Assembly (NCBI RefSeq): GCF_000022265.1
Contig: NC_011979.1
Span: forward strand, 1,230,001-1,262,000
DNA: 32,000 nt
Source of the DNA: Geotalea daltonii FRC-32
GTDB taxonomy: Bacteria; Desulfobacterota; Desulfuromonadia; Geobacterales; Geobacteraceae
Direction: 5' to 3'
Shown here piece after piece: positions 2,840 through 26,787 of this stretch. The stretch's first letter is position 1; each line of letters starts with the position of its first letter. The notes under the pieces are model-generated. The model saw nothing but the letters and a program-made list of their open reading frames with translations, did no database searches and was not told the DNA's origin. The translations under genes and the position numbers were made by a program.

Positions 2840-3763
<924 letters not shown>

Positions 3764-3787: not shown

Positions 3788-4978
3788 ATGAACTCACAAC
3801 AATGGATCGCCAAGGGCGACAAATACATCATGAAGACCTATGGCCGCTATCCGCTGGTGCCGGTCAGGGGCGAAGGGTGCTACCTGTGGGATGCGGACGG
3901 CAAACGCTATCTGGATTTCCTCGCCGGGGTGGCCGTCAACAACCTGGGGCATTGTCATCCGAAAGTGGTGGCGGCGCTGCAGAAACAGGCGGCCGAGCTG
4001 ATCCATTGCTCCAACTATTACCACATCCCGACCCAGATCGAACTGGCCGAGCTGCTCTGCAACAACTCCTTTGCCGACCGGGCTTTTTTCTGCAACAGCG
4101 GCGCCGAGGCCAACGAGGCCGCCATCAAGCTGGCGCGCAAGTACAGCCGGGAAAAGTTTGGGCCTGAGCGCTACCAGATCATTACCGCCATTTCGTCCTT
4201 CCACGGCCGGACCATGGCCACCGTCTCCGCCACCGGCCAGGAGAAGGTGCAGAAATTCTTCGATCCCCTGCTGCATGGCTTCGTCCATGTCCCTTTCAAT
4301 GATGCCGATGCCCTGCGCCAGGCGGTTACTCCTGCTACCTGTGCCATCATGCTGGAACCGATCCAGGGTGAAGGCGGGGTCGTGGTTCCCGATGCGGAAT
4401 ATTTCCGCCAGGTAAGGCAGATCTGCGACGACAACAACCTGCTCCTCATCTTCGACGAGGTTCAGGTGGGAATCGGCAGGACCGGCAAGCTCTTTGCTCA
4501 TGAGCATTTCGGCGTCACTCCCGATATCATGACCCTTGCCAAGGCTCTGGCCGGAGGCGCTCCCATCGGCACCATGCTGGCCAAGGAAGAGTTGGCCGAA
4601 TTCTTCGGCCCGGGTACCCATGGCTCCACCTTCGGCGGCAATCCGCTGGTGACGGCTGCCGGGGTTGCAGCCATAAGGACGATTCTGGAAGAAGGCATCC
4701 TCAACCACGCCGAAGAAATCGGTGAGTACCTGGTGGGCGAACTGGAAGGACTGAAAAGAAAGTTCCCCGTTATCACGGAGGTACGCGGCATCGGCCTGAT
4801 GATCGGTGCCGAGCTTTCCATTCCCGGCGGAGAAATCGTCAAGAAGGCCCTGGAACGGGGCGTTCTGCTCAACGTGACCCACGACAGTGTGCTCCGGTTT
4901 GTACCACCGCTGATCGTCGGCAAGAAGGAAGTGGACGAAATGATCGGCATTCTCGCCGGCATTCTTGCGGAGATTTGA
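3788..4978 (+). CDS. argD: Acetylornithine aminotransferase (class III PLP aminotransferase)
   Basis: 396 aa with FCNSGAEANEAAIKLARK, DEVQVGIGRTGKLFA and TLAKALAGG (PLP-Lys region). It lies between argB and argF. Confidence 0.93.
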   Translation: MNSQQWIAKGDKYIMKTYGRYPLVPVRGEGCYLWDADGKRYLDFLAGVAVNNLGHCHPKVVAALQKQAAELIHCSNYYHIPTQIELAELLCNNSFADRAFFCNSGAEANEAAIKLARKYSREKFGPERYQIITAISSFHGRTMATVSATGQEKVQKFFDPLLHGFVHVPFNDADALRQAVTPATCAIMLEPIQGEGGVVVPDAEYFRQVRQICDDNNLLLIFDEVQVGIGRTGKLFAHEHFGVTPDIMTLAKALAGGAPIGTMLAKEELAEFFGPGTHGSTFGGNPLVTAAGVAAIRTILEEGILNHAEEIGEYLVGELEGLKRKFPVITEVRGIGLMIGAELSIPGGEIVKKALERGVLLNVTHDSVLRFVPPLIVGKKEVDEMIGILAGILAEI

Positions 4979-4984: not shown

Positions 4985-5043
4985 GTAGGGGCGGTCCCGT
5001 GTGGCCGCCCGATAATAGGGCAACCACGCGGGGTTGCCCCTAC
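4985..5043. repeat. REP-like structured palindromic element (GTAGGGGC...GCCCCTAC) in the argD-argF spacer
   Basis: Outer arms GTAGGGGC (4985-4992) and GCCCCTAC (5036-5043) enclose two hairpins. These are GGGCGG/CCGCCC (4989-4994 with 5005-5010) and GGGCAACC/GGTTGCCC (5018-5025 with 5032-5039). The same terminal motif recurs at 7411-7439. Confidence 0.7.
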
Positions 5044-5055: not shown

Positions 5056-5967
5056 ATGAACAAGGATTTCCTGGCACTGAGCCAGTTCAGCAAAAGCGAG
5101 CTGGACGCCATCTTTACCCTGACCAGGGAGCTGAAGCAAAAACAGAAAAGGGGGGAGGAGCATCACCTGCTCAAGGGGAAAACCCTGGCGATGATCTTCG
5201 AGAAATCCTCCACCCGAACCCGCGTCTCCTTCGAGGTGGGTATGTACCAGCTGGGGGGGCATCCGCTCTTCATCTCTACCAAGGATTCCCAGATGGGACG
5301 GGGCGAGCCGATCAAGGACACTGCGCGGGTGATGGCCCGCTATTGCGATGGTGTCATGATTCGCACCTATGGCCAGGAGATCGTGGAAGAATTTGCCCGC
5401 TACTCATCGGTACCGATCATTAACGGTCTCACTGACCTGCACCATCCCTGCCAGATCATGGCCGACCTTTTTACCGTCATCGAGCACCGCGGCAGTTATG
5501 AAGGGCTGAAGATCGCCTGGGTAGGGGATGGCAATAACATGGCCAACACCTGGATCGAGGCAGCTGCCATTTTCGGTTTCGACCTGACCCTTGCCTGTCC
5601 CAAGGGGTATGAACCGGATGCAGCGGCCATGCAATGGGCGCTTGCCAATGCCACCTCCAGTATCGTCCTCACCGACGATCCCCAGGAGGCGGTAAAGGAT
5701 GCCGATGTGGTCAACACCGACGTCTGGGCGAGCATGGGACAGGAAGCGGAGCAGAACAAGCGGGAAAAGGACTTTGCCGGTTATCAACTGAACGAAGCTC
5801 TACTCGATCTGGCTAAGGGGAACTGCATGGTACTCCACTGTCTGCCGGCTCACCGGGGCGAGGAGATTACCGATGACGTCATCGAGGGGCCACATTCGGC
5901 GGTGTGGGATGAGGCGGAAAACAGGTTGCACGTACAAAAAGCCATCATGGCAACCCTCATGGGTTGA
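5056..5967 (+). CDS. argF: Ornithine carbamoyltransferase
   Basis: The STRTR carbamoyl-phosphate motif (EKSSTRTRVSFE), HPCQ and HCLPAH motifs are present. I place the start at ATG 5056 (MNKDFLAL, AAAGGA RBS upstream) rather than the ORF-track 4975. The 4975 start would translate through the REP element. Confidence 0.94.
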   Translation: MNKDFLALSQFSKSELDAIFTLTRELKQKQKRGEEHHLLKGKTLAMIFEKSSTRTRVSFEVGMYQLGGHPLFISTKDSQMGRGEPIKDTARVMARYCDGVMIRTYGQEIVEEFARYSSVPIINGLTDLHHPCQIMADLFTVIEHRGSYEGLKIAWVGDGNNMANTWIEAAAIFGFDLTLACPKGYEPDAAAMQWALANATSSIVLTDDPQEAVKDADVVNTDVWASMGQEAEQNKREKDFAGYQLNEALLDLAKGNCMVLHCLPAHRGEEITDDVIEGPHSAVWDEAENRLHVQKAIMATLMG

Positions 5968-6160
5968 GGAGCGCCGCTTTTCCGCCATGGCGGCGTTGCC
6001 CGGCGGGAACTCCTTGTGCGACGTGGATGGGCGCTGTTTATGCCCTGTGGGTACCACGCCTCCGCGGATTCCCTTGGGCGCCTTGCCCTGACGAAAAATC
6101 GACGTTCCATAGGAAAATCTGGACAATTTACATTGAAATCGTTGAAAAGGAGATATTTTA

Positions 6161-7381
6161 ATGGCTAAGCAAGAAGTGAAGAAGATCGTCCTTGCCTACT
6201 CCGGCGGGCTGGATACCTCCATCATCCTCAAGTGGTTGAAGAACGAGTACGGTTGTGAAGTGATTACCTTTTCCGCCGATCTGGGCCAGGGGGACGAGTT
6301 GGCGCCGATCCGGGAAAAGGCTTTCGCCACCGGTGCCGACAAGGTCTATATCGATGACCTGAAGGAGGAATTCGTCCGCGACTTCGTCTATCCCATGTTC
6401 CGGGCCAATGCCATTTACGAGGGGCATTACCTGCTCGGCACTTCCATCGCCCGGCCGCTCATTGCCAAGCGGCAGATGGAGATTGCCAAGATCGAGGGTG
6501 CCGATGCCGTTTCCCACGGCGCTACCGGCAAGGGCAACGATCAGGTCCGGTTCGAGCTGGGCTACTACCATTTCAATCCGGCCATTACCGTCATCGCCCC
6601 CTGGAGGGACTGGAAGCTGAACAGCCGCCAGGCGCTGGTCAACTACGCCAAGAAGAACGACATACCCATTCCGGTCACCAAGAAGCGCCCCTGGTCCTCT
6701 GACCGAAACCTGCTGCACATCTCCTTCGAAGGTGCCATCCTTGAGGATACCTGGGCGGAAGCACCGGAAAACATGTACGTGCTGACCAAGGCGCCGGAAA
6801 AGGCCCCCAATAAGCCACAGTACGTGGAAATTGAGTTCAAGAACGGCAACGCCGTGGCCGTTGATGGTGAAAAGATGTCGCCTGCCCAGCTCCTTGCCCA
6901 CCTCAACTTCATCGGCGGCGAGCACGGCATCGGCCGGGTCGACCTTCTGGAGAACCGCTCGGTGGGCATGAAATCCCGCGGTGTCTATGAGACCCCCGGC
7001 GGCACCATTCTGCGCGAGGCGCACATGGCTGTTGAGCAGATTACCATGGACCGCGAGGTCATGCACCTGCGCGATTCCCTCGTTCCCCGCTATGCTGAGA
7101 TGGTCTACAACGGCTATTGGTTTTCGCCGGAGCGGGAAATGCTCCAGGCCCTGATCGACGAGTCACAGAAAACGGTCAACGGTGTGGCACGGGTGAAGCT
7201 GTACAAGGGCCATTGCCGGACCGTCGGCCGCAAGTCCGAGACCGATTCCCTCTTCAATCTCGATTTTGCCACCTTCGAAAAGGATCAGGTATACAACCAG
7301 AAGGATGCGGAAGGTTTCATAAAGCTGAATTCCCTCCGTCTGCGTATCCGCTCGCTTCAGGCTGCGGCAAAAAAGAAATAA
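6161..7381 (+). CDS. argG: Argininosuccinate synthase
   Basis: 406 aa with the [12 protein letters not shown]-binding motif, [15 protein letters not shown], and an AAGGAG RBS 8 nt upstream. Confidence 0.96.
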
Positions 7382-7410
7382 TGGCTGAAACACCAAAGAT
7401 GGATTAATCT

Positions 7411-7439
7411 GTAGGGGCACGGTAACACTGTGCCCCTAC
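7411..7439. repeat. REP-like hairpin GTAGGGGCAC-N9-GTGCCCCTAC just after the argG stop (possible terminator/attenuator)
   Basis: A perfect 10-bp stem (7411-7420 pairs with 7430-7439) with a 9-nt loop. It shares the GTAGGGGC/GCCCCTAC ends with the element at 4985-5043. There is no U-tract. Confidence 0.65.
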
Positions 7440-7447
7440 GGTCTTAT

Positions 7448-7897
7448 ATGCCACAGATAAAATACAAAAAAGAACATATCGTCACCTCGGTAGTTGCGGT
7501 TATCGTCGATGACGACGAACGGGTGCTGCTGACCAAGCGGAACATCCCTCCGTTCATGGACCAGTGGGTCATGCCGGGGGGGCAGATCGACCTGGGAGAG
7601 CCGATGCTGGAGGCTCTTCACCGGGAGGTGATGGAGGAAGTCGGCCTGGAGGTGGAAGTGCAGGGACTGGTGGATGTCTTCGAACACCTGACGCCGGGTC
7701 CCCACAATAGCCATTTCGTCATCCTCTACTACCGTTGCCGGCCGCTCTATTGCGATATTACCCATAACCCCCAGGAAGTGGCCGAGGCCCGGTGGGTGCC
7801 GTGCGGGGAGCTCGCCAGGTACGACATGCCCGACGGTACCAGGTTCATACTGGGCAAGATCTTCCCCGAACTCTGTAGTTGTGATATTAGGTCATGA
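7448..7897 (+). CDS. NUDIX hydrolase (about 149 aa)
   Basis: The Nudix box G-x5-E-x7-REUxEExGU is perfect: GQIDLGEPMLEALHREVMEEVGL. I prefer the ATG at 7448 because the ORF-track GTG at 7430 lies inside the hairpin stem. No clear SD sequence is present, so the start is uncertain. Confidence 0.85.
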   Translation: MPQIKYKKEHIVTSVVAVIVDDDERVLLTKRNIPPFMDQWVMPGGQIDLGEPMLEALHREVMEEVGLEVEVQGLVDVFEHLTPGPHNSHFVILYYRCRPLYCDITHNPQEVAEARWVPCGELARYDMPDGTRFILGKIFPELCSCDIRS

Positions 7898-7935
7898 AGT
7901 TGTGGGTTTTGCTCCTGAAACAAACCTAACTGACT

Positions 7936-9084
7936 ATGGTTCAAATCATCGACAAAAAGATCAATCTGGAGTTCCCCCAGGGGCATCATCTCCATTGCCT
8001 GATCGCCCAGATTCCCAATCACCTGCGGCGTGTGGAGCACGGCTTCGCCCTGACCGACCCGGAAGAGAAATGGACCCAGGTCAAGGCGATCCTCGACCTG
8101 ATCAGCATCGGTGAAGGCAACCTGAAAAAGCTCCACTTCCTGGTGCTGCCTGAGACCAGCATCCCCTTTTCCCGTTTCGACGAGATGTTGGCCATTCTGG
8201 AGCACAGTTTCCGGCCCAATACCGTCACCATGTTCGGTGTGGAGCACATACGGCTGAGGGTCTACCGGGAGTTGCTGGAGCGCTTCAGGGAAAACAACGA
8301 CGAGGCGATCGAGCTGGTGGACCGGGACATCGACTCGGGCGACATCCTGGATATGCCGGTCAACTGGTGCTGCATCGCAGTCAAGGAGGCAACGGGCAAG
8401 CTGCGGGTTTTTCTCGAGGCGAAGTCGCACCCCTTCCATGGCGAAGAGTTCCTGGACAAATACCATGACCTCTACCGCGGCCGCCATTTTTACCTGTTCA
8501 GGAGCCGCCCGTCATGCTTCAACTTCATGGCCCTGATCTGCCTGGACTACATATATCGGGATCTGTACGCATCGAACATCAAGCAGATCATCGACCATGC
8601 CGACCGCCTCTTCTTCAGTACCAAACAGGGTCTGGACGCTTTATTCGTCATCCAGTGCAACCCGAAGCCGGAGCACCGGGCCTATTTCGAGGTCATCAGC
8701 GGCTTCTACGGAGAGTTTCTCGAGGATACGCCGGGGGTAAGGGAGACGGTTTCCGTCTTTGCCAATACTTCTGATGAGACCAGTCTGGAAGGACTGCCGT
8801 CCCAGGCGCCCTACGGCAACTCCTTCGTTGTCATGAATAAGCATTACAAGCTGGGAAAGATCCAGCATCCGGAGTTCACCACCGACAATTTCAGCGGTGC
8901 GCCGGTGTGCCGGCTGCGCTTCGGCAGCGGCACGCGCCTCTACTACATCAACCTGCCCCTGTACCATGAGTTGGACCCCCGCACCAGCAGGATCCCCCTC
9001 AAGGTGCACGTGGTCCTGCGCTGGTCCGAAGGGAAGTGGGTCAAGATACAGGGCGACGAAATGGTGGCAGCTGTAACCGGCTGA
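7936..9084 (+). CDS. Uncharacterised 382-aa protein, possibly a divergent carbon-nitrogen hydrolase (nitrilase superfamily) fold with a C-terminal extension
   Basis: A long ORF with host-like composition, co-directional between the NUDIX gene and argH. Three motifs occur in CN-hydrolase order and spacing: HFLVLPE73, VFLEAK163SHPF and MALIC202LDY. No family can be assigned with certainty by eye. Confidence 0.6.
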   Translation: MVQIIDKKINLEFPQGHHLHCLIAQIPNHLRRVEHGFALTDPEEKWTQVKAILDLISIGEGNLKKLHFLVLPETSIPFSRFDEMLAILEHSFRPNTVTMFGVEHIRLRVYRELLERFRENNDEAIELVDRDIDSGDILDMPVNWCCIAVKEATGKLRVFLEAKSHPFHGEEFLDKYHDLYRGRHFYLFRSRPSCFNFMALICLDYIYRDLYASNIKQIIDHADRLFFSTKQGLDALFVIQCNPKPEHRAYFEVISGFYGEFLEDTPGVRETVSVFANTSDETSLEGLPSQAPYGNSFVVMNKHYKLGKIQHPEFTTDNFSGAPVCRLRFGSGTRLYYINLPLYHELDPRTSRIPLKVHVVLRWSEGKWVKIQGDEMVAAVTG

Positions 9085-9126
9085 CCGCCTGTTAATATTT
9101 CATGCATTAGCATCAGGAGAGACCAG

Positions 9127-10503
9127 ATGAGCAAAGACAAACTGTGGGGTGGCCGTTTCACCCAGCCCACTGACAAATTCGTCGAGGAATTCACCGCTTC
9201 CATCGACTTCGACAAGCGCCTCTACCATCAGGATATTCGCGGCTCCATCGCCCACGCCCGGATGTTGGGCAAACAGCGGATCATCCCCATGGAGGATGTG
9301 GAGAAAATAGTCCATGGACTGCAGGAGATCCTTGACCAGATCGAGGCCGGCAAATTCGATTTCTCCATCTCCCTGGAAGACATCCACATGAATATCGAGT
9401 CGCGCCTGTCGGCGAAGATCGGCGAGGCGGGCAAACGTCTGCACACCGGGCGCTCGCGCAACGACCAGGTGGCCCTGGATATCCGCCTCTACCTGCGGGA
9501 CGAGCTGGTGGAGATCAGCGCTTACCTTGATCTGCTGGTGGATTCACTGCTCACCCAGGCGGAAAAGAATATCGATGTCATCATGCCGGGCTATACCCAC
9601 CTCCAGACTGCCCAGCCGATTCTCTTCGCCCATCACATGCTTGCTTATGTGGAAATGTTCAAGCGGGACAAGGGCCGCATGGAAGACTGCCTGAAGCGGA
9701 CCAACATCCTGCCGCTGGGGGCCGGTGCCCTGGCCGGGACCACATTCCCCATCGACCGGGAGCACGTGGCCGAATTGCTGGACTTCCCCGAGGTAACCCG
9801 CAACTCCCTCGACTCGGTTTCCGATCGGGATTTTGCCCTGGAATTCCTGGCCGATGCCTCCATTCTGATGATGCACCTCTCTCGATTCTCCGAGGAGCTG
9901 ATCCTCTGGTCCACCAGTGAATTCAAATTCATCGACCTCTCCGACGGCTTCTGCACCGGCTCTTCCATCATGCCCCAGAAGAAAAACCCGGACGTGCCGG
10001 AACTGGTGCGGGGCAAGACCGGCCGTGTCTACGGTAACCTGATGGCCCTCCTCACCGTGATGAAATCACTGCCCCTGGCCTACAACAAGGACATGCAGGA
10101 GGACAAGGAGCCGCTTTTCGACACCATCGACACCGTCAAGGGAAGCCTCAAGATCTTTGCCGATATGATCCGGGAGATGCAGGTCAACACCGACACCATG
10201 CGCAACGCAGCGGCAAAAGGCTTTTCCACGGCCACCGACGTGGCCGACTACCTGGTGCGCAAGGGGATGCCGTTCCGTGACGCCCATGAGGTGGTAGGAA
10301 AATCGGTTGCATACTGCATCGCCAACAAAAAGGACCTGCCGGAGCTTGCCATCGAGGAATGGAAGGGTTTCTCCCCGATGATCGATACCGACATCTATGA
10401 GGCCATCACCCTGGAGGCTAGCGTCAATGCTCGCCGTGCAACCGGCGGCACTTCTCTGGAAGGGGTTAAAAGAGAGATTGCCAGAGTACGAGCTGGCAAG
10501 TAG
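9127..10503 (+). CDS. argH: Argininosuccinate lyase
   Basis: 458 aa with [15 protein letters not shown], and the fumarate-lyase signature [12 protein letters not shown]. An AGGAGA RBS is present. Confidence 0.96.
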
Positions 10504-10565
10504 ACGGCTGTGGCTTTTGGGCAATTTCTGCGTTCGGCTGCGGGGCAATCGATAGGTTTTCATAC

Positions 10566-11321
10566 ATGCTAAAAATCCTGATTCCCATCATCATAATCTT
10601 TTTACTCTCTGCCTGTGGCAAGAAGGGGCCGCTGGTGCCGCCGGAGGCGCTGGTCCCTGCTGCCGTGGCCGATCTCCATGTTGCGCAGAAGGGGGACTTT
10701 TTCCAGCTCTCCTGGTCCCAGCCGACCAAGGAAGCCGGGGGTGGTCGCCTGACCGGCCTTGCCGGCTTTGAGCTCTTTCGGAGGGAGGTGTTGCCCCCGG
10801 CTGAGGATTGCGAACAGTGCCAAACTGCCTATCGCCTGCTGAAAAAGGTCGATCTGGATTACCTGCGTGTTGTGGACCGCCTCGGCAACCTGTTATTGGT
10901 CAACGATAACGGGGTAGAGACCGGCAAGACCTACCAGTACAAGGTCATCTCGCGGAAAAAGGACGGCACCCCCAGTCCGGAATCCAATCGGGCCCGACGG
11001 CAGAAGGTCAATCCCCCCTTGCCGCCGGAGGTCAAGGCAACTTCCCAGACAACCAGTATCCTTATTGAGTTGAATCCTGCGCAGGTGGAGCCGGCCGCTG
11101 TCCTGTCGGGATACAATATCTACCGCTGGCGGACCGGGCAGTCCATCCCCCCGATTCCCCTCAACGACAAGCCCGTCACCGGCAATACCTTTGAAGACCA
11201 GCGGGTGGAGCGGGGTGTTACCTATTCCTATGCAGTGCGTACCCTGGTCAAGGCAGCGGGAGAAGAGGTGGAAAGCGCACCTTCCAACCAAGTGAGCGGG
11301 GCTTTGGCAGAGCCTGACTGA
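10566..11321 (+). CDS. Lipoprotein with an LptM/YifL-like N-terminus followed by two FN3-like beta-sandwich segments
   Basis: Signal peptide plus lipobox LLSAC, followed by GKKGPLVPP (compare E. coli YifL/LptM LTGCGLKGPLYFP). Later segments show FN3-like patterns: LSWSQP...GFELFRRE...GKTYQYKV and GYNIYRW...GVTYSYAV. Confidence 0.7.
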   Translation: MLKILIPIIIIFLLSACGKKGPLVPPEALVPAAVADLHVAQKGDFFQLSWSQPTKEAGGGRLTGLAGFELFRREVLPPAEDCEQCQTAYRLLKKVDLDYLRVVDRLGNLLLVNDNGVETGKTYQYKVISRKKDGTPSPESNRARRQKVNPPLPPEVKATSQTTSILIELNPAQVEPAAVLSGYNIYRWRTGQSIPPIPLNDKPVTGNTFEDQRVERGVTYSYAVRTLVKAAGEEVESAPSNQVSGALAEPD

Positions 11322-16713: not shown

Positions 16714-17007
16714 ATGAGAGTTATCGCAAAGAAAACATTGCGCCAATTTTGGGAGAGATTTCCCGATGCAGAAGACGCCTTGAAATCCTGGCATGCAGAG
16801 ACGGAGGCTGCTGCGTGGCAAACCCCAGCTGAAGTAAAGGCACAGTTCCATAGTGCCAGCATTGTCAAGGATAGCAGGGTCGTCTTCAATATCTGTGGTA
16901 ACAAGTATCGGCTGGTGGTGAAGATAAGCTATAAAAATGGGATTGTTCTTATCAGGTTTGTCGGTACCCACAAGGAATACGACGCGGTAGATGTCGAGGT
17001 GGTGTGA
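16714..17007 (+). CDS. higB: HigB-family (RelE-fold) mRNA-interferase toxin
   Basis: 97 aa: MRVIAKKTLRQFWERFPDAEDALKSWH...VFNICGNKYRLVV...IRFVGTHKEYD. This matches the HigB toxin family pattern as I recall it. Confidence 0.85.
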   Translation: MRVIAKKTLRQFWERFPDAEDALKSWHAETEAAAWQTPAEVKAQFHSASIVKDSRVVFNICGNKYRLVVKISYKNGIVLIRFVGTHKEYDAVDVEVV

Positions 17008-18209
17008 TGATCCACAAAATCATAAAAAACGAAAACGATTATGCAATAGCCTTGGCCCGCATAGATGAGCTAATAGATGCCGATCTAGGCACCCCCGATG
17101 GAGATGAACTGGAACTGCTGGTTACACTGGTTGAATTGTATGAAAACAAGGCTCATCCTATCGGTTTTCCCGACCCCATCGAAGCCATTAAATTCCGCAT
17201 GGGACAGGCGGGACTGAAGCAGAAGGATCTCATACCGTTTATTGGCAGTCGTAGCAAGGTTTCCGAGGTATTATCGCGCCAGCGCCCACTGAGCATTGCC
17301 ATGATACGTAAGCTTCACGAGGGACTGGGAATCCGGGCGGAAGTTCTTTTGCGTGAGCCGGAAACCAAAGGTGTACCTGCTTCTGAAGGGATAGAGTGGG
17401 AACGGTTTCCCTTGGCTGAAATGGTCAAAAGGAAATGGCTGCCTCATTTTGAAGGCACTATTAACGAGGCAAAGAAGCAGATCGCCGAATTGATCGGTGG
17501 CTGGGCAGCCCATGTCGGTGCTGACACACTGCAGCCGGCACTTCTACGACAGCATGTGCGTTCTGGAAGTGAGGTAGATAACTATGCCCTGGCCGCATGG
17601 AGGATTCGGGTCTCGCTGCAGGCTCAGGAGCAGAAGATACCACGATATCAGCCAGGCACGGTAACAACAGACTTCATTCGTGACCTTGTCCGGCTGAGCT
17701 ACCTTGATAATGGGCCTCTTCTGGCTCGGGAATACCTTCTGAAGAGCGGTATCCACTTCGTGGTGGAAGAGCATCTTCCCCATACCCACTTGGATGGAGC
17801 TGCCGTAATGCTTCAGAACGGTTCACCGCTTGTGGCGTTGACCCTCCGCCACGACAGGCTGGACAACTTCTGGTTCACCCTGTGTCATGAGTTGGCACAT
17901 GTCGCGTTGCATTTTGATGGCGGGGAGTGTGATGCTTTCTTCGACGACCTTGACCAAGCAGAAATAGATTTATTCGAGAAGGATGCTGATCATTGGGCAA
18001 CTGAGGCGCTTATTCCGTCTGAACTGTGGCATGCAGCCGACATGGAACGAAACCCGTCGACGCGGAGGATTATCGACTTTGCAGCCAGTCTCAGGATCAG
18101 TCCGGCAATCCCTGCGGGCCGCATCCGTAAGGAAAAGCAGAATTACAGGATATTCAGCGGCCTGCTTGGCTATAAACAGGTGCGCACCTTAGTTATGCAA
18201 GGCATCTAG
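17004..18209 (+). CDS. HigA-like HTH antitoxin fused to an ImmA/IrrE (M78) zinc metallopeptidase domain
   Basis: The N-terminal ~120 aa resemble HigA antitoxins (ENDYAIALARIDELIDA..., then the HTH KQKDLIPFIGSRSKVSEVLSRQRPLSIAMIRKL). The C-terminal part has HELAH (LCHELAHVALH) and a downstream EKDADHWATEALIP, like COG2856/ImmA. The start overlaps the higB stop (GTGATG), so it may be GTG 17004 or ATG 17007. Confidence 0.82.
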   Translation: MMIHKIIKNENDYAIALARIDELIDADLGTPDGDELELLVTLVELYENKAHPIGFPDPIEAIKFRMGQAGLKQKDLIPFIGSRSKVSEVLSRQRPLSIAMIRKLHEGLGIRAEVLLREPETKGVPASEGIEWERFPLAEMVKRKWLPHFEGTINEAKKQIAELIGGWAAHVGADTLQPALLRQHVRSGSEVDNYALAAWRIRVSLQAQEQKIPRYQPGTVTTDFIRDLVRLSYLDNGPLLAREYLLKSGIHFVVEEHLPHTHLDGAAVMLQNGSPLVALTLRHDRLDNFWFTLCHELAHVALHFDGGECDAFFDDLDQAEIDLFEKDADHWATEALIPSELWHAADMERNPSTRRIIDFAASLRISPAIPAGRIRKEKQNYRIFSGLLGYKQVRTLVMQGI

Positions 18210-18298
18210 GAAAAAGCGATCCATGTTTATCTACTTTTAGTGCCATACGAATCCCTTTCGCTTTCCCTCATAAATGCTGAACACAAGGCTTTTTCTGT

Positions 18299-18385
18299 TC
18301 GGCTCCAGCGGTGAAGGCTTCTTCCAGCTGCCGGCCTTCGGGTATCGTGAGAATGTGATTGAGGTGGTGGAGACGATAAATTGAA
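18299..18385 (+). pseudogene. Remnant of a second dapL 3' end (last 28 codons plus stop)
   Basis: It translates to [28 protein letters not shown]. The true dapL C-terminus (16493-16591) is [32 protein letters not shown]. By hand alignment 67 of 84 nt are identical, and there is no upstream ORF. Confidence 0.85.
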
Positions 18386-18415
18386 ATTTGGAGTAGAAGA
18401 TGTTTAACTGAAAAG

Positions 18416-18439
18416 GCGGCGGGAAGGCCGCCTTTTTTA
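18416..18439. terminator. Rho-independent terminator, second copy of the dapL terminator context (bidirectional position)
   Basis: GGCGGC-GGGAAG-GCCGCC followed by TTTTTTACAC. The post-stem sequence is the same as at 16618-16629. It lies between the remnant and the convergent 320-aa gene. Confidence 0.75.
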
Positions 18440-18463
18440 CACTAAAAGGTTGAATGCCCGCAT

Positions 18464-19426
18464 TTATCTAACATGGAGTTCCGATGTGTCCAGCTTGAAC
18501 TCGTCATATATTCCGAGTTTCTTCATTATGACAGGTAAGATTTGATGAATCGTTCTCATACCCATGAGGAGTTCATTAATATAAATATCTGGATGAATTC
18601 GCGAGGCGTTAAATCCCAGACTTTCGGCCTCAGCTTCATGTCCGAGGTCGTCATGGGAGTCAAAGACTAGCCCCAGAAGCTCTGCTCTCAACGGAACACC
18701 GGTGCGGAAGGCTCGATCTTTTACGATATTGATCCATTCTTCATAGTCCTTCAAAACTTTATGTCTGTGCTCTCTGAATTTAGGCGCAAATGCTTCGTCC
18801 ACATCAATCTTACAAGCAGCGAGATCTATCAGGCATGGCTCAATATTGTCAGCAGCTGTTCCTACTAACTCAAGATCATCGTCGTCTATCAGTTCAGCAA
18901 TATACGCGGCATAGAACCCGTAAACATCATTCAGTGATATGTAGATCTTGTAGATCAGAGCTGAATACGGGTTCTTCTCAAGAAAAACCGTAACTTCATC
19001 ACCAAGGCCATCGGTAAAAACATTATTGAAGTCGGTTTCTAATTCATCAGGGAATTTTTTAGGTATATCTACACCAATCTCCCTGAGAACATGGAATGTT
19101 TCCCAGCACAAAAGCCTCAGTTCGTCATTTAGGGAGTAAGTGTTGTATCCAGTTTCGGCATTTTCTATAGCAATCTCGGCCAGAAAATGAATGAGTTTTT
19201 CCCACTTATTCGCCTCTTGAAGAGAGCCTGCCCACAGCACGAACGAAGGGTCTTTGTCACCGATAGCCAAAATTTTTCGAAATTTTTCTTCCATTTCATG
19301 TGACATATGCTCTTTATTCTTCCATTTGCTGATTTGAGTGGGTGACACCCCGAGGCGAACAGCGAGTTCTTTCTGACTGCACGACAAAGTCTTCAACGCG
19401 AGTTGTACCAGGTCTTCAGTATGCAT
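18464..19426 (-). CDS. XRE-family HTH protein with a ~250-aa unassigned alpha-helical C-terminal domain
   Basis: N-terminus: LSCSQKELAVRLGVSPTQISKWKN (Cro/C1-type HTH). A GAAGGGAG RBS is present. The gene is markedly AT-rich: a hand count of one 60-nt line gives about 32% G+C, against about 65% for a line of argD. Confidence 0.8.
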   Translation of the reverse strand: MHTEDLVQLALKTLSCSQKELAVRLGVSPTQISKWKNKEHMSHEMEEKFRKILAIGDKDPSFVLWAGSLQEANKWEKLIHFLAEIAIENAETGYNTYSLNDELRLLCWETFHVLREIGVDIPKKFPDELETDFNNVFTDGLGDEVTVFLEKNPYSALIYKIYISLNDVYGFYAAYIAELIDDDDLELVGTAADNIEPCLIDLAACKIDVDEAFAPKFREHRHKVLKDYEEWINIVKDRAFRTGVPLRAELLGLVFDSHDDLGHEAEAESLGFNASRIHPDIYINELLMGMRTIHQILPVIMKKLGIYDEFKLDTSELHVR

Positions 19427-19448
19427 TTCGATACTCCCTTCATAGTAG

Positions 19449-19525
19449 TTTAGTAAAATCGCCTAATTTCTAGGTAATTTTACTTTTAACAATTATTTAG
19501 TAATTACGCAACTTAATTTAGTAAA
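19449..19525. promoter_or_regulatory. Three TTTAGTAA(A/T) repeats in the promoter region of the XRE gene (candidate operators)
   Basis: TTTAGTAAA at 19449-19457, TTTAGTAAT at 19496-19504 and TTTAGTAAA at 19517-19525. The last two are 21 bp apart. A further TAGTAAA lies at 19748-19754. One 60-nt line of the region hand-counts at about 23% G+C. Confidence 0.4.
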
Positions 19526-19631
19526 TTAGAATGTAAAAAGAATTTACATATTCCATCTGCATTGCGGCCCGCACCAAAGAACGAGGGTATAAGGGGATGG
19601 AGTCCGGTCTGGGCTTCCCGCCACATAGCGA

Positions 19632-19716
19632 AGGAAATGGGGTCAAGGAAATGGGGTCAAAAGGAAATGGGGTCAGGCTTTGCATTTAAAAGGAAATGGG
19701 GTCAGGCTTTGCATTT
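19632..19716. repeat. Left repeat array: 4x AGGAAATGGGGTCA, the last two extended to GGGGTCAGGCTTTGCAT
   Basis: Units start at 19632, 19646, 19662 and 19691. The 17-mer GGGGTCAGGCTTTGCAT is the exact reverse complement of ATGCAAAGCCTGACCCC, which is repeated at 21074-21258. Confidence 0.9.
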
Positions 19717-19781
19717 GGTGATTTGCCTGGTATAGTTGCCATAATTCTAGTAAATCTGCATGTATGTGTATGGGGGGAGAA

Positions 19782-20126
19782 ATGGCATTACCACAATTGG
19801 TAAAGCAGTTAGTCGAAAAGAAACTTTCCGACTACTGCAAAAGTAAAGTTTCGCCGGAGCTATCCGAGAAAATCCGCATGGGCTTTCGCATCAGACGTGA
19901 CAACGTGACCCTCTTTGAATCGCGCCCGTCTTTTCCAGAACCGAGTCATTGGGTTGAAATTCCTGTTGCCCAATTCCGCTTCGATCCTGGCACCGGACTG
20001 TGGACCCTGTACTGCGCAGACCGGAACTCCCGCTGGCATTACTATGTGGATGTAGATCCCAGCAAAAATCTTCAAAACTTGCTGAAGGAAGTTGACCAGG
20101 ATCCAACCGGCATATTCTGGGGGTAG
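19782..20126 (+). CDS. DUF3024-like small protein
   Basis: The C-terminal pattern LWTLYCADRNSRWHYY...LLKEVDQDPTGIFWG matches my recollection of the DUF3024 family. ATG 19782 follows GGGGGAGA; alternative ATGs are at 19764 and 19770. The stop lies 3 nt before the next gene. Confidence 0.65.
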   Translation: MALPQLVKQLVEKKLSDYCKSKVSPELSEKIRMGFRIRRDNVTLFESRPSFPEPSHWVEIPVAQFRFDPGTGLWTLYCADRNSRWHYYVDVDPSKNLQNLLKEVDQDPTGIFWG

Positions 20127-20129
20127 AAC

Positions 20130-21086
20130 ATGGCACGCAAGCCGCGTATCCATCATCCAGGCGCCTTTTACCACGTGATCCTCCGGGGCAACGGAAAGCA
20201 GGACATTTTCTTCGACGACCAGGACCGGTACCGCCTTTATTTGCTGCTGCAAGAAAGTGTTGAGCGCTTCCGATGCCGCATTCACGCATTCTGTCTGATG
20301 TCCAATCATATCCATCTGGTGGTGCAGGTGTCAGATATTCCCCTGTCACGCATCATGCAGAATGTTTCCTTCCGGTACACCCGCTGGATCAACTGGCGGC
20401 ATGATCGCTCGGGCCATCTTTTTCAGGGACGATATAAGGCCATTCTAGTCGATGAAGATGCGTACCTTCTGGAGTTAGTGCGCTATATCCACCTTAACCC
20501 CCTACGGGCGAACATGGTCAAAATTATCGGTGAATATCCCTGGATTGGCCATAATGCCTACCTGGGAAAGGAAAAGTTGCCTTGGCTGCATGCCGATACG
20601 GTTCTGGAAATGCTTTCTCCAAGAAAAAAGACGGCTATTGCAGCCTATGCTGGATTTGTCGAGGAAGGCTGTGCGGGACAGCGGAGATGTGACTTCCATG
20701 GAGAGGGCATATCCGACAGCCGGATATTGGGCGAAGAAGATTTTGTTCAAACTGTGATCGGGGATGCGGAGATGTTGCATGTCAGGATCACCGTTGAGGA
20801 TGTCATATCTACCGTCTGCAAATATTACGAGACGGTGGAGGAAAAGCTTGCCAGTCCGGGCAAGAGCCGTGCGCTGTCCCATGCTCGCGGTATGGCGGCG
20901 TGGATTGTTCAGGACGTGTCGAGCTGTTCGCTGACGGATTTGGGCTGTCGTGTCAGCAGGGATATATCTTCACTAAGTGCAGCGGCTAACCGGCTACAGT
21001 TGCGGTCAACATCAGAAAAGGCTCTCATGCGGGAGAAAGAGGAACTCTGGGCGAAGATGCAGCAAATAACCACATGCAAAGCCTGA
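20130..21086 (+). CDS. HUH/Y1 (IS200-like, REP-associated tyrosine transposase-like) protein with a C-terminal DnaA-domain-IV-like HTH
   Basis: The HUH motif is in CLMSNHIHLVVQ. The Tyr motif is RYIHLNPLRAN (compare E. coli RayT DYIYINPVKHG). The C-terminus ISTVCKYYETVEEKLASPGKSRALSHARGMAAWIV...SLTDLGCRVSRDISSLSAAANRL resembles DnaA domain IV. Confidence 0.8.
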   Translation: MARKPRIHHPGAFYHVILRGNGKQDIFFDDQDRYRLYLLLQESVERFRCRIHAFCLMSNHIHLVVQVSDIPLSRIMQNVSFRYTRWINWRHDRSGHLFQGRYKAILVDEDAYLLELVRYIHLNPLRANMVKIIGEYPWIGHNAYLGKEKLPWLHADTVLEMLSPRKKTAIAAYAGFVEEGCAGQRRCDFHGEGISDSRILGEEDFVQTVIGDAEMLHVRITVEDVISTVCKYYETVEEKLASPGKSRALSHARGMAAWIVQDVSSCSLTDLGCRVSRDISSLSAAANRLQLRSTSEKALMREKEELWAKMQQITTCKA

Positions 21087-21310
21087 CCCCAACTCAGACC
21101 CAACTCAGACCTGGGCGAAGATGCAGCAAATAACCACATGCAAAGCCTGACCCCAACTCAGACCCAGACCCAACTCAGACCTGGGCGAAGATGCAGCAAA
21201 TAACCACATGCAAAGCCTGACCCCAACTCAGACCATAACCACATGCAAAGCCTGACCCCAACTCAGACCTGACCCCAACTCAGACCCAACTCAGACCCAA
21301 CTCAGACCTA
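21047..21310. repeat. Right repeat array: 3.6 tandem copies of a 54-bp unit that begins inside the transposase-like ORF, plus 9 copies of AACTCAGACC
   Basis: CTGGGCGAAGATGCAGCAAATAACCACATGCAAAGCCTGACCCCAACTCAGACC occurs at 21047-21100, 21111-21164 and 21181-21234, with a partial copy at 21235-21269. The 10-mer AACTCAGACC starts at 21091, 21102, 21155, 21172, 21225, 21260, 21277, 21288 and 21299. Confidence 0.92.
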
Positions 21311-21673
21311 GTTATCCTTTTTATTTAGACATTCAACTAAATGTATAAAAATTTAATTCTGGTAAGCTCGATATATTGTTTGCAGTTCTGGGACATCTAC
21401 GATTGGCCTCCACCTGCCCGTCTAAGCTCGTCTGCCCCGCCTCCCCTCCCTGCTACCTCTTCTTTATTTCCACATCCCTTGCACGCTCTGCGTGCAATCC
21501 AGCCTCAATAATGCACGCAATGCATTGTAGTAATTTAATAAATATTTGCTATTGTGCCCCCGGCAGTCAATTTGTTCACGGCAAAAGCGGTAAATCTATC
21601 GGAAGGGAGGATCTGTCTGCGTCAGTAACACCAGTCTTTGCAGTGAACTCAACCCAAATTAAAGGAGGAAAAA

Positions 21674-22018
21674 ATGAAAAAGCTTATCTCATCGTTCGCT
21701 GTACTTACTCTGTTGGTTGCTGCCAATGCCTATGCCGGTGTCTGGAACCCATCGGTGCACATCTCGGAAATAGAAGTTAACAGTGACGTTGCAGGGGCGG
21801 GGTCGCGGGCTTTCCTCATTTTACAAGAAGGGGCGGCCAGCAAACCGGCTTGTGGTGCTGCAACGCCCTATGTTCAATTGCAGGGAACCACGGAAAATAT
21901 CCGCAATCTCATCGGTATCGCTACGACGGCATTTATCAATAGCCGGCCCGTTGGCGTCTTCTTTGACGGAACCTGCACCGGGCCTTATGCCAACGTCGCC
22001 GGTCTGGCCCTTCGCTGA
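21674..22018 (+). CDS. Small secreted protein (114 aa, 4 Cys), unknown function
   Basis: AAAGGAGG RBS. The signal peptide is MKKLISSFAVLTLLVAANAYA|GV. The mature part has no recognisable family. Confidence 0.7.
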   Translation: MKKLISSFAVLTLLVAANAYAGVWNPSVHISEIEVNSDVAGAGSRAFLILQEGAASKPACGAATPYVQLQGTTENIRNLIGIATTAFINSRPVGVFFDGTCTGPYANVAGLALR

Positions 22019-22278
22019 GGGGGTCAAGTCCTCTGGCTCGATGAGGTTTTCACTTGGCACTTAAATTAGTTTCCGTCCGGAAATGGTGCTTTTCCGCCCT
22101 AGCGGTGTCAATCTGCAGGATCGCTTGTGCGGCGTACCGATGTACGCCTCCGCGCATCCCTTGATTTTCTTGCCAGAACGAAAAATCCCTCCTTGCCGAT
22201 CCGGAAACCAAAAGTTTCACATCCGGAGTTTCCGGATGGAAACAAATTAAGAGACTAAGTCAACGTTTAGGAGGGAGC

Positions 22279-23019
22279 ATGCGGCGAACATCTTGGGCAA
22301 AGTTTTCATTATTATTGACTGGGGCGATACTGTTGCTGCCACTGCAAGGCTTTGCAGCAACTCAGATTTCCGTTTTACCGTTTACCATTTCGCAACCGGG
22401 TTCCTATGTCGTGTCACAAAATCTGACCAGCAGTGGTGATGGCATCAGTGTCCAGGCCAGCAATGTAGCCATAGACCTGAATGGGTTCACCCTTTCCGGC
22501 TCAGGTTCAGGAAATGGTGTAGTGGTAACTTCCGGGAGCAACATTCAAATCTCGAATGGAACGATAACAGGGTTCACATCAGGTGTAGAGGTGTCGGAAT
22601 GGAATAACAATGTCAGGGTCGCCAGTGTGAATGCTATAGGAAATAGCCTCTGGGGCATTCATCTGTTCGGCACGAACAACCAGGTTAAGGGATGCACGGT
22701 TACGGGCAGCTCATACATTGGCATCCGCGTGGGCAGTGGGTCCAGAGTTGAAGATAACAATCTCTTCAATAATGGCCATGGAATTATTGCTACCGATGGC
22801 AATACGACTATCGCAGGAAACACCGTGACCAGCAGCCTGTATAATGGCATTACCAATGGTGTGGCATGCCTGGTAAAAAACAATACCGTTACTTATAGTG
22901 CAAGTTATGGGATTGCGACCAATGCAGGGTCTTTGTACGACGGAAATGTAACATATGGAAACCTTGTGAACATTACTGGGTGTAGTAACTGTAGCTTCGG
23001 GCTTAATGCCCAGAATTAG
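22279..23019 (+). CDS. Secreted right-handed parallel beta-helix repeat protein
   Basis: TAGGAGGG RBS and signal peptide ...LLLPLQGFAATQ. Repetitive ~22-aa turns are rich in G/N/T/V: NGFTLSGSGSGNGVVV, NGTITGF, GIHLFGTNN, GIRVGSGS, GIIATDGN, NGITNG. Confidence 0.75.
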   Translation: MRRTSWAKFSLLLTGAILLLPLQGFAATQISVLPFTISQPGSYVVSQNLTSSGDGISVQASNVAIDLNGFTLSGSGSGNGVVVTSGSNIQISNGTITGFTSGVEVSEWNNNVRVASVNAIGNSLWGIHLFGTNNQVKGCTVTGSSYIGIRVGSGSRVEDNNLFNNGHGIIATDGNTTIAGNTVTSSLYNGITNGVACLVKNNTVTYSASYGIATNAGSLYDGNVTYGNLVNITGCSNCSFGLNAQN

Positions 23020-23120
23020 TAGTTTAGTGTCCATCCGGATGTGACACGAACAGTTTCCAGATTGGAAAGCGGGGATTTTTTTACCTGGCAAGGACACTCC
23101 CCATATTTCGTATTATGCAC

Positions 23121-23150
23121 GGCGGCCAATCGGCCGCCTTTGCTATTTTT
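23121..23150 (+). terminator. Rho-independent terminator after the beta-helix gene
   Basis: GGCGGCC-AATC-GGCCGCC followed by TTTGCTATTTTT. Confidence 0.65.
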
Positions 23151-23305
23151 CACTAAGAAAGGAAAGCATGATTCCGTTTCATAAATTTCTTAACTAATAA
23201 ACAATAAGGCTTTAAAGCTTATTAGCGGATTGCATAATGAAACTATCGTTAAATAGCAACAGGTGTCAGAAAAGTAAAACCCTCTAAGGTTTACCAGGAG
23301 CCTCT

Positions 23306-24427
23306 ATGTTTACCGAGGTATCGCCACGCGGCGGCAGGCTGGTGCTGCAGCAGAAAGGGCCGGACGGTTACAGCGCCTTTTTGCCCAACCCTCTGCCGCC
23401 AAATCCGCCGCTTCTGATCGACGACGAAATGAGCCGGCTGATGGAACTGGCGAACCGGGCGCTGGGGCGTCTGGACGGATGCACATATACGCTCCCCAAC
23501 CCGGACCTGTTCCTCTATATGTACGTCCGCAAAGAGGCGGTCCTCAGCTCCCAGATCGAGGGAACGCAGGCATCGCTGGACGATCTGCTGGCGTTTGAAG
23601 GCGAAATCGACGGGAAGAGTTCGTCTGACGACATCAACGAGGTATCCAATTACGTGGATGCCATGAATTACGGCCTTGAGTGGCTGCGGGAACTCCCCTT
23701 GAGCCTGCGGCTGATAAAGGAAATCCATGCTCGGCTGATGTCAGGCATCAGAGGGGGGCATAAGAGTCCCGGCGAGTTCCGGACGACCCAGAACTGGATC
23801 GGTGGCACCAGGCCGGGCAACGCCGCCTTCGTGCCGCCGCTGGCCAATGAACTGCTCTCCTGTCTGGGCGAGTTGGAGAAATTCCTGCACGATGAGACGG
23901 TACCGCCGCTGCTCAAGGCCGGCCTCGCCCATGCCCAGTTCGAGACTATCCACCCCTTCCTGGATGGTAACGGCAGAATGGGACGGTTGTTGATCGCTTT
24001 CATTCTCTGTCACGACCAGGTACTGGAAAAGCCGCTGCTGTACTTGAGCCTCTTTTTCAAGAAGCATCGCCAGGAGTATTACGAACGGCTCAATGCCGTA
24101 AGAAAGGATGGCGACTGGGAAGGGTGGATCAAGTATTATCTGCAGGGGGTCTATGAAATATCAAAACAGGCGACAGATGCCGCCAAGGCGATCATGGATC
24201 TGATGGCCGTCGACCGGCAGAAGCTGACAGGACTGGGGAAGGCGGCGCCCACTGCCATGGCTCTGCTCAATCTGCTCTATCGCCGTCCCTACGTGAGCAT
24301 CGCCATTGTCGCACGGGAGCTCGGCATCAGCTCACCGGCAGCGGGCAAGGCGGTCAACAACCTGGCAGCGCTCAGCATTCTGAAGGAAGTGAGCGGCAAA
24401 AAAAAGAGACCGGATTTTTCTCCATGA
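23306..24427 (+). CDS. Fic-family protein (class II, intramolecular inhibitory helix) with a C-terminal wHTH-like tail
   Basis: The Fic motif HPFLDGNGRMGR (HxFx[DE]GNGRxxR) is present. An N-terminal SSQIEG matches the [ST]xxxE[GN] inhibitory motif. AGGAG RBS. Confidence 0.9.
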   Translation: MFTEVSPRGGRLVLQQKGPDGYSAFLPNPLPPNPPLLIDDEMSRLMELANRALGRLDGCTYTLPNPDLFLYMYVRKEAVLSSQIEGTQASLDDLLAFEGEIDGKSSSDDINEVSNYVDAMNYGLEWLRELPLSLRLIKEIHARLMSGIRGGHKSPGEFRTTQNWIGGTRPGNAAFVPPLANELLSCLGELEKFLHDETVPPLLKAGLAHAQFETIHPFLDGNGRMGRLLIAFILCHDQVLEKPLLYLSLFFKKHRQEYYERLNAVRKDGDWEGWIKYYLQGVYEISKQATDAAKAIMDLMAVDRQKLTGLGKAAPTAMALLNLLYRRPYVSIAIVARELGISSPAAGKAVNNLAALSILKEVSGKKKRPDFSP

Positions 24428-24516
24428 GGCCTATCTGGCCATCATCAGGGAAGGGACCGAACTCTTTTCGTAATAATTTGGAGAACTTTCTTCTCAGCCT
24501 ATCCCATACAAAAAGA

Positions 24517-24548
24517 GGCCAAGGGACGCGCGCCCCTTGGCCTTTTAG
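24517..24548. terminator. Bidirectional terminator between the convergent Fic and decarboxylase genes
   Basis: AAAAAGA-GGCCAAGGG-ACGCGCGC-CCCTTGGCC-TTTTAG: a 9-bp GC-rich stem with an A-tract on one side and a T-tract on the other. Confidence 0.8.
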
Positions 24549-24572
24549 TTTCTGTGACTGTTTGATCGCCTA

Positions 24573-25892: not shown

Positions 25893-26172
25893 TCTTACAC
25901 CCTCATAATTTGATATGACACTGCATTTTAGTCTTTAGACAAAATGAAGAGATGGACATCTCTTTTAACATTTTCGACTGCTATGGTGCAAGATATCTGT
26001 GGAATTTTGTTGCGTAACGGTGGCGTTATGGGGACAGCACATTTATTCCAAAGTGGGCCAGTGCCCCCTTTGCCATTTTAATGCTTGAAATTTTGCGGTT
26101 TAATGAGCGAAAATGCGCAGCAATGAATATCAGTTTCTTCCTTAATGAAACAACCACAGTTCCAATGCCTTT

Positions 26173-26773: not shown

Positions 26774-26787
26774 CTAAGGGAGCTCCT

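Follow-up and report, generated by a model that had tools for sequence, protein, structure and literature searches.

What are the two genes that stand between argG and argH in Geotalea daltonii FRC-32, and why are they there? The locus lies within a stretch of 32,000 nucleotides (nt) of the genome (contig NC_011979.1, positions 1,230,001 to 1,262,000), here called the window, in whose coordinates positions are given unless a locus number (L060, for example) stands with them. A preliminary description of this DNA had reported two co-directional genes interrupting the arginine array, the first with a perfect Nudix box and the second fitting no family, and had suggested that they might form an unrecognised branch of arginine metabolism. 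Both genes and the box were borne out, and the arrangement is:

6161–7381, forward strand: argG (argininosuccinate synthase), the upstream neighbour (PF00764 and PF20979, E 1e-64 to 1e-80)
7448–7897, forward strand: MutT-type Nudix hydrolase gene, 149 amino acids (aa), start ATG 7448 (PF00293, E 6.3e-22)
7936–9084, forward strand: X (Geob_1126), 382 aa, predicted nitrilase-superfamily fold (AlphaFold2, Foldseek and the PADLOC LmuA model)
9127–10503, forward strand: argH (argininosuccinate lyase), the downstream neighbour (PF00206 and PF14698)

The gaps between argG and the Nudix gene, the Nudix gene and X, and X and argH are 66, 38 and 42 nt. The 382-aa open reading frame (ORF) is 100% identical to Geob_1126, a "hypothetical protein", and is referred to as X. 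Judged from a structure model, X is a very divergent member, and a new branch, of the nitrilase superfamily. As to why the genes are there, we give about an even chance to X being an active, divergent thiol amidase that makes up an accessory two-enzyme module with the Nudix hydrolase, used for clean-up or salvage and not for a step of arginine synthesis.

For general libraries the statement that X fits no family proved right. No family matched in Pfam (E ≤ 0.1) or NCBIfam, nothing meaningful was obtained from PHROGs, and phmmer found no match among PDB sequences; the LmuA model of PADLOC does match, as described below. A profile of the X family searched against PDB sequences reached an aliphatic amidase, with an E-value of only 0.23. 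The structure model was more informative. Built with AlphaFold2 on 100 homologues (predicted local distance difference test score 90.8, predicted template modelling (TM) score 0.92), it was compared with the PDB using Foldseek, and 47 of the 47 top hits (E ≤ 4e-3) were nitrilase-superfamily proteins, each with a probability of 1.00. The best E-value was 5.9e-9 and the target-normalised TM-scores were 0.47–0.59, while the next hit was noise (probability 0.11). The hits comprise aliphatic amidases, AmiF formamidases, CN hydrolases, N-carbamoylputrescine amidohydrolase and D-carbamoylases, together with nitrilases, cyanide dihydratase, vanin-1 and Lnt. Model and hits agree on a four-layer alpha-beta-beta-alpha sandwich, in support of the fold claim. 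The C-terminal extension of about 130 aa that had been ascribed to X does not form an appendage of its own: distant relatives remain homologous up to approximately residue 370, the Foldseek alignments extend over 300–350 columns, and the extra length consists mainly of a helical insert at about residues 107–133 and of some 50–80 C-terminal residues.

The preliminary description had also picked out three motifs, HFLVLPE73, VFLEAK163SHPF and MALIC202LDY, as a Glu-Lys-Cys triad with E–K and K–C spacings of 90 and 39 residues. Motifs, codon positions and spacings were found as described. Conservation was assessed in an alignment of 36 X-family sequences with identities of 19–60% (A2) and in two further alignments (A4 and A5), and the predicted catalytic residues are:

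8152–8154, forward strand: codon of E73, predicted catalytic general base (LVLPE), after strand 66–70; invariant in A2
8422–8424, forward strand: codon of K163, predicted catalytic lysine (EAKSHPF), at the end of strand 156–162; invariant in A2
8443–8445, forward strand: codon of E170, candidate second catalytic glutamate; at least 90% conserved in A2, A4 and A5
8539–8541, forward strand: codon of C202, predicted nucleophile (LIC-L-D); invariant in A2, A4 and A5

The complete list of invariant columns in A2 is Q25, P72, E73, N143, K163, C202, D204 and N277, and N242, G294 and S296 are, like E170, at least 90% conserved in it. The proposed triad is thus unchanged down to 19% identity and is joined by a second glutamate. 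Strand and helix positions in the model were used to judge the placement of these residues; C202 falls between strand 196–201 and helix 202–205, which is a nucleophile elbow. The HMMER family profile weakly aligns E73 (FPE) to Glu59 in the FPEYS motif of the Geobacillus pallidus amidase, and the N277...G294-x-S296 region to the N..G...fG.S motif of the same enzyme. The canonical motifs of the superfamily were reportedly laid out by Pace and Brenner in 2001, and those of X resemble them (xPE, K-x-H-x-[FP]...E and I-C-x-D). The predicted catalytic set of X, placed within these motifs, matches the Glu-Lys-(Glu)-Cys signature that marks the nitrilase superfamily.

In a scan using one genome per GTDB species, relatives of X were found in 297 genomes, and the context was analysed for the best 80. 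A Nudix gene lies directly 5' of X in 72 of these 80 loci (median gap ≈8 nt). The complete order argG-nudix-X-argH is present in 51 loci, and 8 further loci on truncated contigs are consistent with it. About 10 loci in Geobacterales have nudix-X with no arg gene within ≈6 kb (the full 6-kb flanks are visible in 7), and the flanking genes differ among them. X stands next to argH without an adjacent Nudix gene in 6 loci of the G. argillaceus group, and alone in 2 loci, one in Geothrix and one in a Holophagaceae metagenome-assembled genome (MAG; 72–73% identity). The order argG-nudix-X-argH was also seen in 6 of 7 contexts of deep X orthologues (44–53% identity), in some of which the outer flanking genes differ. 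They include a complete 2.78-Mb genome, in which ArgH has only 53% and ArgG 65% identity to its counterpart in the window, and a MAG that was binned as NC10. Synteny of the pair with argG and argH, which the preliminary description had raised as a check, is thus seen across Geobacterales and in six of the seven deep contexts.

The pair has also been found as a single gene. In a 3.3-kb soil-metagenome contig one 545-aa ORF (P0444; locus L087, 1290–2927) carries the Nudix domain first, then a short Pro/Arg-rich linker and then X, with the Nudix box and the E, K and C residues intact. This bears on the explanation that the two genes are unrelated hitch-hikers, a MutT-like house-cleaning Nudix hydrolase and an amidase, that were inserted once between argG and argH in an ancestor and have been kept by inertia, with no function in common and none in arginine metabolism. 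Both genes are dispensable (see below), X sometimes occurs without the Nudix gene, and Geobacter operons mix functions (the same array runs on into lysA, dapA and dapB), all of which would suit such an origin. However, the pair relocates together, with its ≈8-nt spacing, and has been fused at least once, and the gene order survives divergence at which ArgH is just 53% identical. We consider inertia an improbable explanation.

Outside Geobacterales the pair is found in Anaeromyxobacter oryzae (L085), again without arg genes (X 63% and Nudix protein 69% identical to those of the window). X from this species, from the Geothrix MAG (L001/L018) and from the Holophagaceae MAG (L025) shows 63–73% identity, as is seen within Geobacterales. 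Such closeness between hosts of different phyla points to horizontal transfer among anaerobes that share soils and sediments, and the stand-alone copies in Holophagae look like recent cases of it. These host taxa are known as Fe(III) reducers. In a further lineage (P0123; L086, 5598–7600; 44% identity) X sits between a gene for an RRM_1 protein and an overlapping mini-RNase III gene, with neither Nudix nor arg neighbors.

Within Geobacterales X behaves differently from a mobile gene. The ratio of nonsynonymous to synonymous substitutions (dN/dS) against Geotalea sp. SG265 is 0.063 for X, compared with 0.054 for argH, 0.047 for argF and 0.054 for the Nudix gene, and indicates purifying selection on both members of the pair. 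From species to species X and ArgH diverge in step (rho 0.73; ArgG versus ArgH 0.78), and a tblastn search of 72,556 plasmids and 50,697 phages found no copy of X. In Geobacterales X is a vertically inherited housekeeping gene. Nor is it a chance ORF, given 1157 homologues recovered in the homologue search, a dN/dS of 0.06 and invariant E73, K163 and C202.

The conserved position between argG and argH raises the question of whether the pair serves arginine synthesis itself. Transposon sequencing (Tn-seq) of G. sulfurreducens (Chan et al., 2017; PMC5585712, supplementary Table S2) bears on this. The Nudix gene GSU0154 ("NUDIX hydrolase, type 15") received 1685 reads at 6 sites and the X orthologue GSU0155 1627 reads at 9 sites, and both are non-essential, with log2 fitness values of ≈0 on fumarate and of +0.5 and +0.7, respectively, on electrodes (PMC5585712). 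In the same data argG (6 reads, 3 sites) and argH (2 reads, 2 sites) are essential, and argB, argD and argF are coded essential as well (PMC5585712). Since insertions in the pair are tolerated where the arg genes are essential, the pair is not required for arginine synthesis, and we rejected an essential arginine step. The essential argH begins 21 nt downstream, yet its expression survives when GSU0154 or GSU0155 is disrupted, which points to a promoter of its own or to outward read-out from the transposon.

A milder form of the arginine hypothesis is that the pair is an arginine-specific proof-reading or salvage module that removes a by-product of ArgF, ArgG or ArgH, with X acting on the ureido or amide bond and the Nudix hydrolase on the nucleotide part. 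Candidate by-products would be a compound N-carbamoylated by carbamoyl phosphate or cyanate, cyclic argininosuccinate anhydrides or, from the adenylate-forming ArgG, a mis-adenylated ureido compound or a dinucleoside polyphosphate. The gene order in 51 of the 80 species and in the six deep contexts, some with different surroundings, is what this hypothesis would lead one to expect; the structural neighbors of X include the ureido-cleaving N-carbamoylputrescine amidohydrolase and D-carbamoylase, and the pair, like typical repair enzymes, can be dispensed with when cells grow in rich laboratory conditions. Against it, about 10 Geobacterales species and Anaeromyxobacter have the pair at a site without arg genes, and Holophagae have X alone; disruption costs no fitness in medium in which the cells depend on arginine synthesis; and the closest sequence relatives of X are immune effectors and not carbamoylases. 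We regard an arginine-specific module as possible, though on the unlikely side. Of the arginine branch suggested in the preliminary description, the synteny with arg genes has stood; the pair being a stable unit of Nudix and X, its dispensability in Tn-seq and the immune effectors as nearest relatives speak against the rest. X may conceivably act on a ureido or guanidino by-product, and an arginine-specific role of the pair is unproven. The site between argG and argH is conserved too well to be set aside, and proof-reading of a ureido or adenylated by-product stays in contention. However, a dedicated step of the pathway is hard to reconcile with a pair that is dispensable and that stands apart from arg genes in several lineages.

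The immune effectors are distant relatives of X. When 1.84 billion cluster representatives were searched exhaustively with HMMER, 211 clusters were found. Among them is a tight clade of proteins of 377–393 aa (41–61% identity), around which lies a cloud of proteins of 590–1300 aa (20–32% identity) that carry the domain at the N-terminus. The PADLOC model for LmuA (PDLC03850) matches X with an E-value of 8.8e-28, residues 6–302 of X aligning to positions 9–305 of the 604 in the profile, and matches 36 of the 36 members of A2. A weak link was also obtained to the PADLOC model RT_UG5-nitrilase, in agreement with the predicted fold (X at 1.4e-3; relatives as low as 1.8e-9, over ≈150 residues). Upon profile retrieval, 600-aa relatives of X were found immediately 5' of, and overlapping, genes of ≈1200 aa with SMC_N/AAA_23 domains, as seen in a Bradyrhizobium genome and on a 4.1-Mb contig beside DUF1156 and DUF499 genes. 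These pairs are two-gene Lamassu-type operons:

L084, 189–12401: operon of nitrilase-like LmuA and LmuB in a defense-island-like setting, adjoining the DUF1156 and DUF499 genes
L082/L083, 7001–15815: operon of nitrilase-like LmuA and LmuB in Bradyrhizobium, adjoining an IS110 transposase gene and a helix-turn-helix–Peptidase_M78 gene

Other relatives of X carry NB-ARC, NACHT, AAA_16, TPR or HEAT regions. The LmuA/SMC pairs and the STAND/TPR fusions mark the X-family domain as a nitrilase-type effector module of conflict systems. In sequence, X and the N-terminal effector domain found in one type of LmuA and in some STAND/TPR NTPases form one family. In our literature search no paper was found that places this Lamassu/STAND effector domain in the nitrilase superfamily, and ours is the first fold assignment we could find for this effector type. 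X itself was rejected as a Lamassu system, as it ends at residue 382 and has neither the C-terminal domain of LmuA nor a LmuB partner.

Could the pair nonetheless be an active or domesticated conflict module, with X as toxic effector and the Nudix hydrolase as a regulator or antidote that destroys an activating or toxic nucleotide? It would then act in phage defense or in stress-induced growth arrest, unrelated to arginine. That all distant relatives of X are Lamassu/STAND-type effector domains in defense-island contexts speaks for this, and toxin-antitoxin-looking ORFs flank the pair in some loci without arg genes (L060 and L073; N-termini judged by eye, with no family search). The Nudix protein also matches the PADLOC candidate PDC-S07, but this is probably merely a generic Nudix match. 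Against these stand the near-universal, syntenic (51/80) and vertical occurrence of X, its dN/dS of 0.06, its tracking of ArgH and the lack of plasmid or phage copies, which do not fit the patchy distribution, mobile-element association and rapid turnover of a mobile defense or toxin-antitoxin module; a mobile-element origin was rejected. X has no sensor domain, and G. sulfurreducens tolerates insertions in the Nudix gene, which argues against the latter being an essential antidote, although polarity of the insertions is possible. A conflict role for the pair is in our view improbable, both as an effector with its antidote and as a participant in phage defense or growth arrest.

Read from the translation and the DNA, the Nudix box G45-x5-E51-x7-R59-E60-V-x-E63-E64-x-G66-L67 occupies residues 45–67 (nt 7580–7648) and agrees fully with GX5EX7REUXEEXGU; together with the PF00293 match this places the protein in the Nudix superfamily. 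Its top NCBIfam and PDB matches are MutT-, NudI- and NudG-like, and every one is under the equivalog cut-off, including MutT (8-oxo-dGTPase), with 49.6 bits against the 97.9 of TIGR00586. No NudC, ADP-ribose or CoA specificity motif was seen by eye. A CoA pyrophosphatase was considered for the stretch "LLTKR" and rejected, as the spacing is wrong for the NuCoA motif, again by eye.

How, then, might the pair work? In the mechanism we favor, C202 of X would attack a non-peptide amide or carbamoyl group at its carbonyl carbon, with E73 as general base and with K163 and E170 stabilizing the tetrahedral intermediate; ammonia or an amine would depart and the thioester would then be hydrolyzed. X and the MutT-type Nudix pyrophosphohydrolase would form a two-enzyme module in which the Nudix enzyme cuts a diphosphate before or after X cleaves the C-N bond. 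The most likely substrate would be a nucleotide-linked or nucleotide-derived amide or carbamoyl compound. We propose this because the coupling to a nucleotide pyrophosphatase parallels that in NitFhit, and because it fits the idea that nitrilase-type effectors attack nucleotide cofactors. NitFhit is a "Rosetta stone" fusion of invertebrates that joins Nit, a nitrilase-superfamily amidase, to the Ap3A hydrolase Fhit. The module lies beside argG and argH and is probably expressed together with them, and its reaction would be an accessory, non-essential clean-up or salvage outside arginine synthesis.

Several observations weigh against this proposal. The PF00795 (CN_hydrolase) profile does not match X, and the query-normalized TM-scores of the model are modest (0.40–0.47). 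As neither this profile nor any PDB sequence matches, we place X in the superfamily at the fold/superfamily level only. The Nudix protein has no diagnostic specificity motif. X occurs without a Nudix gene in Holophagae, in the P0123 lineage and beside argH in the G. argillaceus group, and can therefore work alone. Adjacency and one fusion do not prove a shared metabolite, and the single metagenomic fusion could be an artifact of assembly or a frameshift. Finally, the deep conservation of the position between argG and argH is not explained by a generic clean-up role. Literature searches for GSU0154, GSU0155, Geob_1126, a Nudix gene with argG/argH, a nitrilase-Nudix fusion or a Lamassu amidase returned nothing.

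A more far-reaching idea, which we think doubtful, is that the Nudix-X pair is the housekeeping counterpart of the Lamassu/STAND nitrilase-type effector, either its ancestor or its domesticated descendant. The obligate Nudix partner would then be a sign that the target of the whole family is a nucleotide-linked amide, such as the carboxamide of NAD+/NMN or that of nucleotides of the AICAR/ZTP type. If this were true, the substrate of X, as a small, soluble and non-toxic enzyme, would reveal how nitrilase-type defense effectors, possibly including those like DRT1, kill or arrest infected cells, and there would be an unrecognized route of nucleotide-amide salvage or repair wired to the argG-argH steps.

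The remainder of the arginine array and the gene that follows it in the window are:

2861–3763, forward strand: argB
3788–4978, forward strand: argD
about 5057–5967, forward strand: argF, likely start ATG 5057 with AAGGA ahead of it
10566–11321, forward strand: small lipoprotein gene with an LptM-like N-terminus (sub-threshold, E 2.3e-4)

Beyond the lipoprotein gene the same array continues with lysA, dapA, dapB and a class I/II aminotransferase gene, which lies 3' of dapB and is probably dapL. The position of the lipoprotein gene between argH and lysA is kept in most loci across Geobacterales, at an identity of just 30–55%. The mechanical ORF starts of argF (TTG 4975) and of the Nudix gene (GTG 7430) are probably too early. 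The former is doubtful because it overlaps argD and a REP-like (repetitive extragenic palindromic) element, and the latter because it lies inside a hairpin, with ATG 7448 the likely start instead. The GC content over the Nudix-X pair is not unusual.

This hairpin (7409–7441, forward strand) was found in the argG/Nudix gap by a scan for terminator-like elements and is REP-like, with a 15-bp stem and a GTAG head. Its predicted RNA fold has a free energy of −28.5 kcal/mol (z −4.3), and it is kept, with variation, in related genomes, some of which have extra copies. No repeat matching it was found elsewhere in the window at ≤3 mismatches, and an Rfam search of positions 6000–10600 gave no match. 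REP-like palindromes with GTAGGGGC...GCCCCTAC heads lie in both the argD/argF gap (4985–5043) and the argG/Nudix gap (7409–7441), and GTAGGGGC occurs 4 times against 0.77 expected. These palindromes could be transcript stabilizers, attenuators or REP elements. 3' of the arg/lys/dap array the window contains a heterogeneous, possibly mobile or variable region (17004–30279):

17004–18209: IrrE/Peptidase_M78-like protein
20130–21086, forward strand: protein of 318 aa with Y1_Tnp (IS200-like) and DnaA_C helix-turn-helix domains
22279–23019: beta-helix protein
23306–24427: Fic-domain protein
24573–25892, reverse strand: second Orn/DAP/Arg decarboxylase-like gene
28561–30279: PKD-repeat protein

The 318-aa protein may be a REP-associated tyrosine transposase tied to the GTAG-headed palindromes.

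What is new at this locus is a previously unannotated branch of the nitrilase superfamily that is stand-alone, paired with a Nudix protein and embedded in an arg operon. A family listed as "hypothetical" and missed by general libraries can now be assigned a predicted fold, a predicted active site and testable chemistry. Its members are conserved throughout Geobacterales, a key group of metal reducers and electroactive bacteria, and the deep conservation of argG-nudix-X-argH despite dispensability makes the pair a candidate for metabolite repair attached to arginine synthesis. The assignment also places the Lamassu/STAND effector domain in the nitrilase superfamily, with a constitutively encoded housekeeping relative, and a free-standing X with its Nudix partner should be an easier biochemical entry to nitrilase-type immune effectors.

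Compared with known amidases of the superfamily, X shares the predicted alpha-beta-beta-alpha core, and its conserved Glu, Lys, second Glu and Cys follow one another as they do there and sit on corresponding structural elements. The closest structures are the aliphatic amidase of G. pallidus (4kzf, 2plq) and AmiF formamidase (5g3o, 2e2k), together with a CN hydrolase of S. aureus (3p8k), N-carbamoylputrescine amidohydrolase (5h8j) and D-carbamoylase (1erz). Unlike these, to which its identity is just 9–14%, X has the helical insert at about 107–133 and extra C-terminal strands, and its family also conserves Q25, N143, N242-P-x-P-x-H247 and N277. The Nudix protein resembles the nucleoside triphosphate pyrophosphohydrolases of the MutT, NudG and NudI types in being a single domain of ≈150 aa with a perfect box and MutT-like best matches, but it is here dedicated to pairing with X and lies under all equivalog cut-offs.

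With LmuA and the STAND/TPR NTPases X shares homology over their N-terminal ≈300–370 residues, at 20–30% identity among relatives, and the same invariant residues. In contrast to LmuA it has no C-terminal domain of ≈300 aa and no sensor or regulatory tail, and it is passed on vertically, within a biosynthetic operon and alongside its Nudix partner; where a Lamassu system has an adjacent SMC-type LmuB, X has argG, the Nudix gene and argH. The nitrilase domain of the class 3 defense reverse transcriptases (DRT1/UG1 and UG5) is weakly but recurrently linked to X by sequence. In DRT1 this domain is the immune effector, its substrate is stated to be unknown with ATP, GTP and NAD+ suggested, and it superposes closely on bacterial, plant and yeast nitrilases (PMC13275509, a structure paper of 2026). 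X has neither a reverse transcriptase domain nor a filament-forming C-terminus and is far more divergent. A parallel to the pair as a whole may be NitFhit, in which a nitrilase-superfamily amidase is likewise coupled at the gene level to a nucleotide-pyrophosphate hydrolase, as X is to the Nudix enzyme, sometimes by fusion. The partner of X has a Nudix and not a HIT fold, the fusion runs from Nudix to amidase, and X is not of the Nit branch. The coupling of a Nudix protein to a nitrilase fold, one fusion included, would be an independent repeat of the NitFhit logic.

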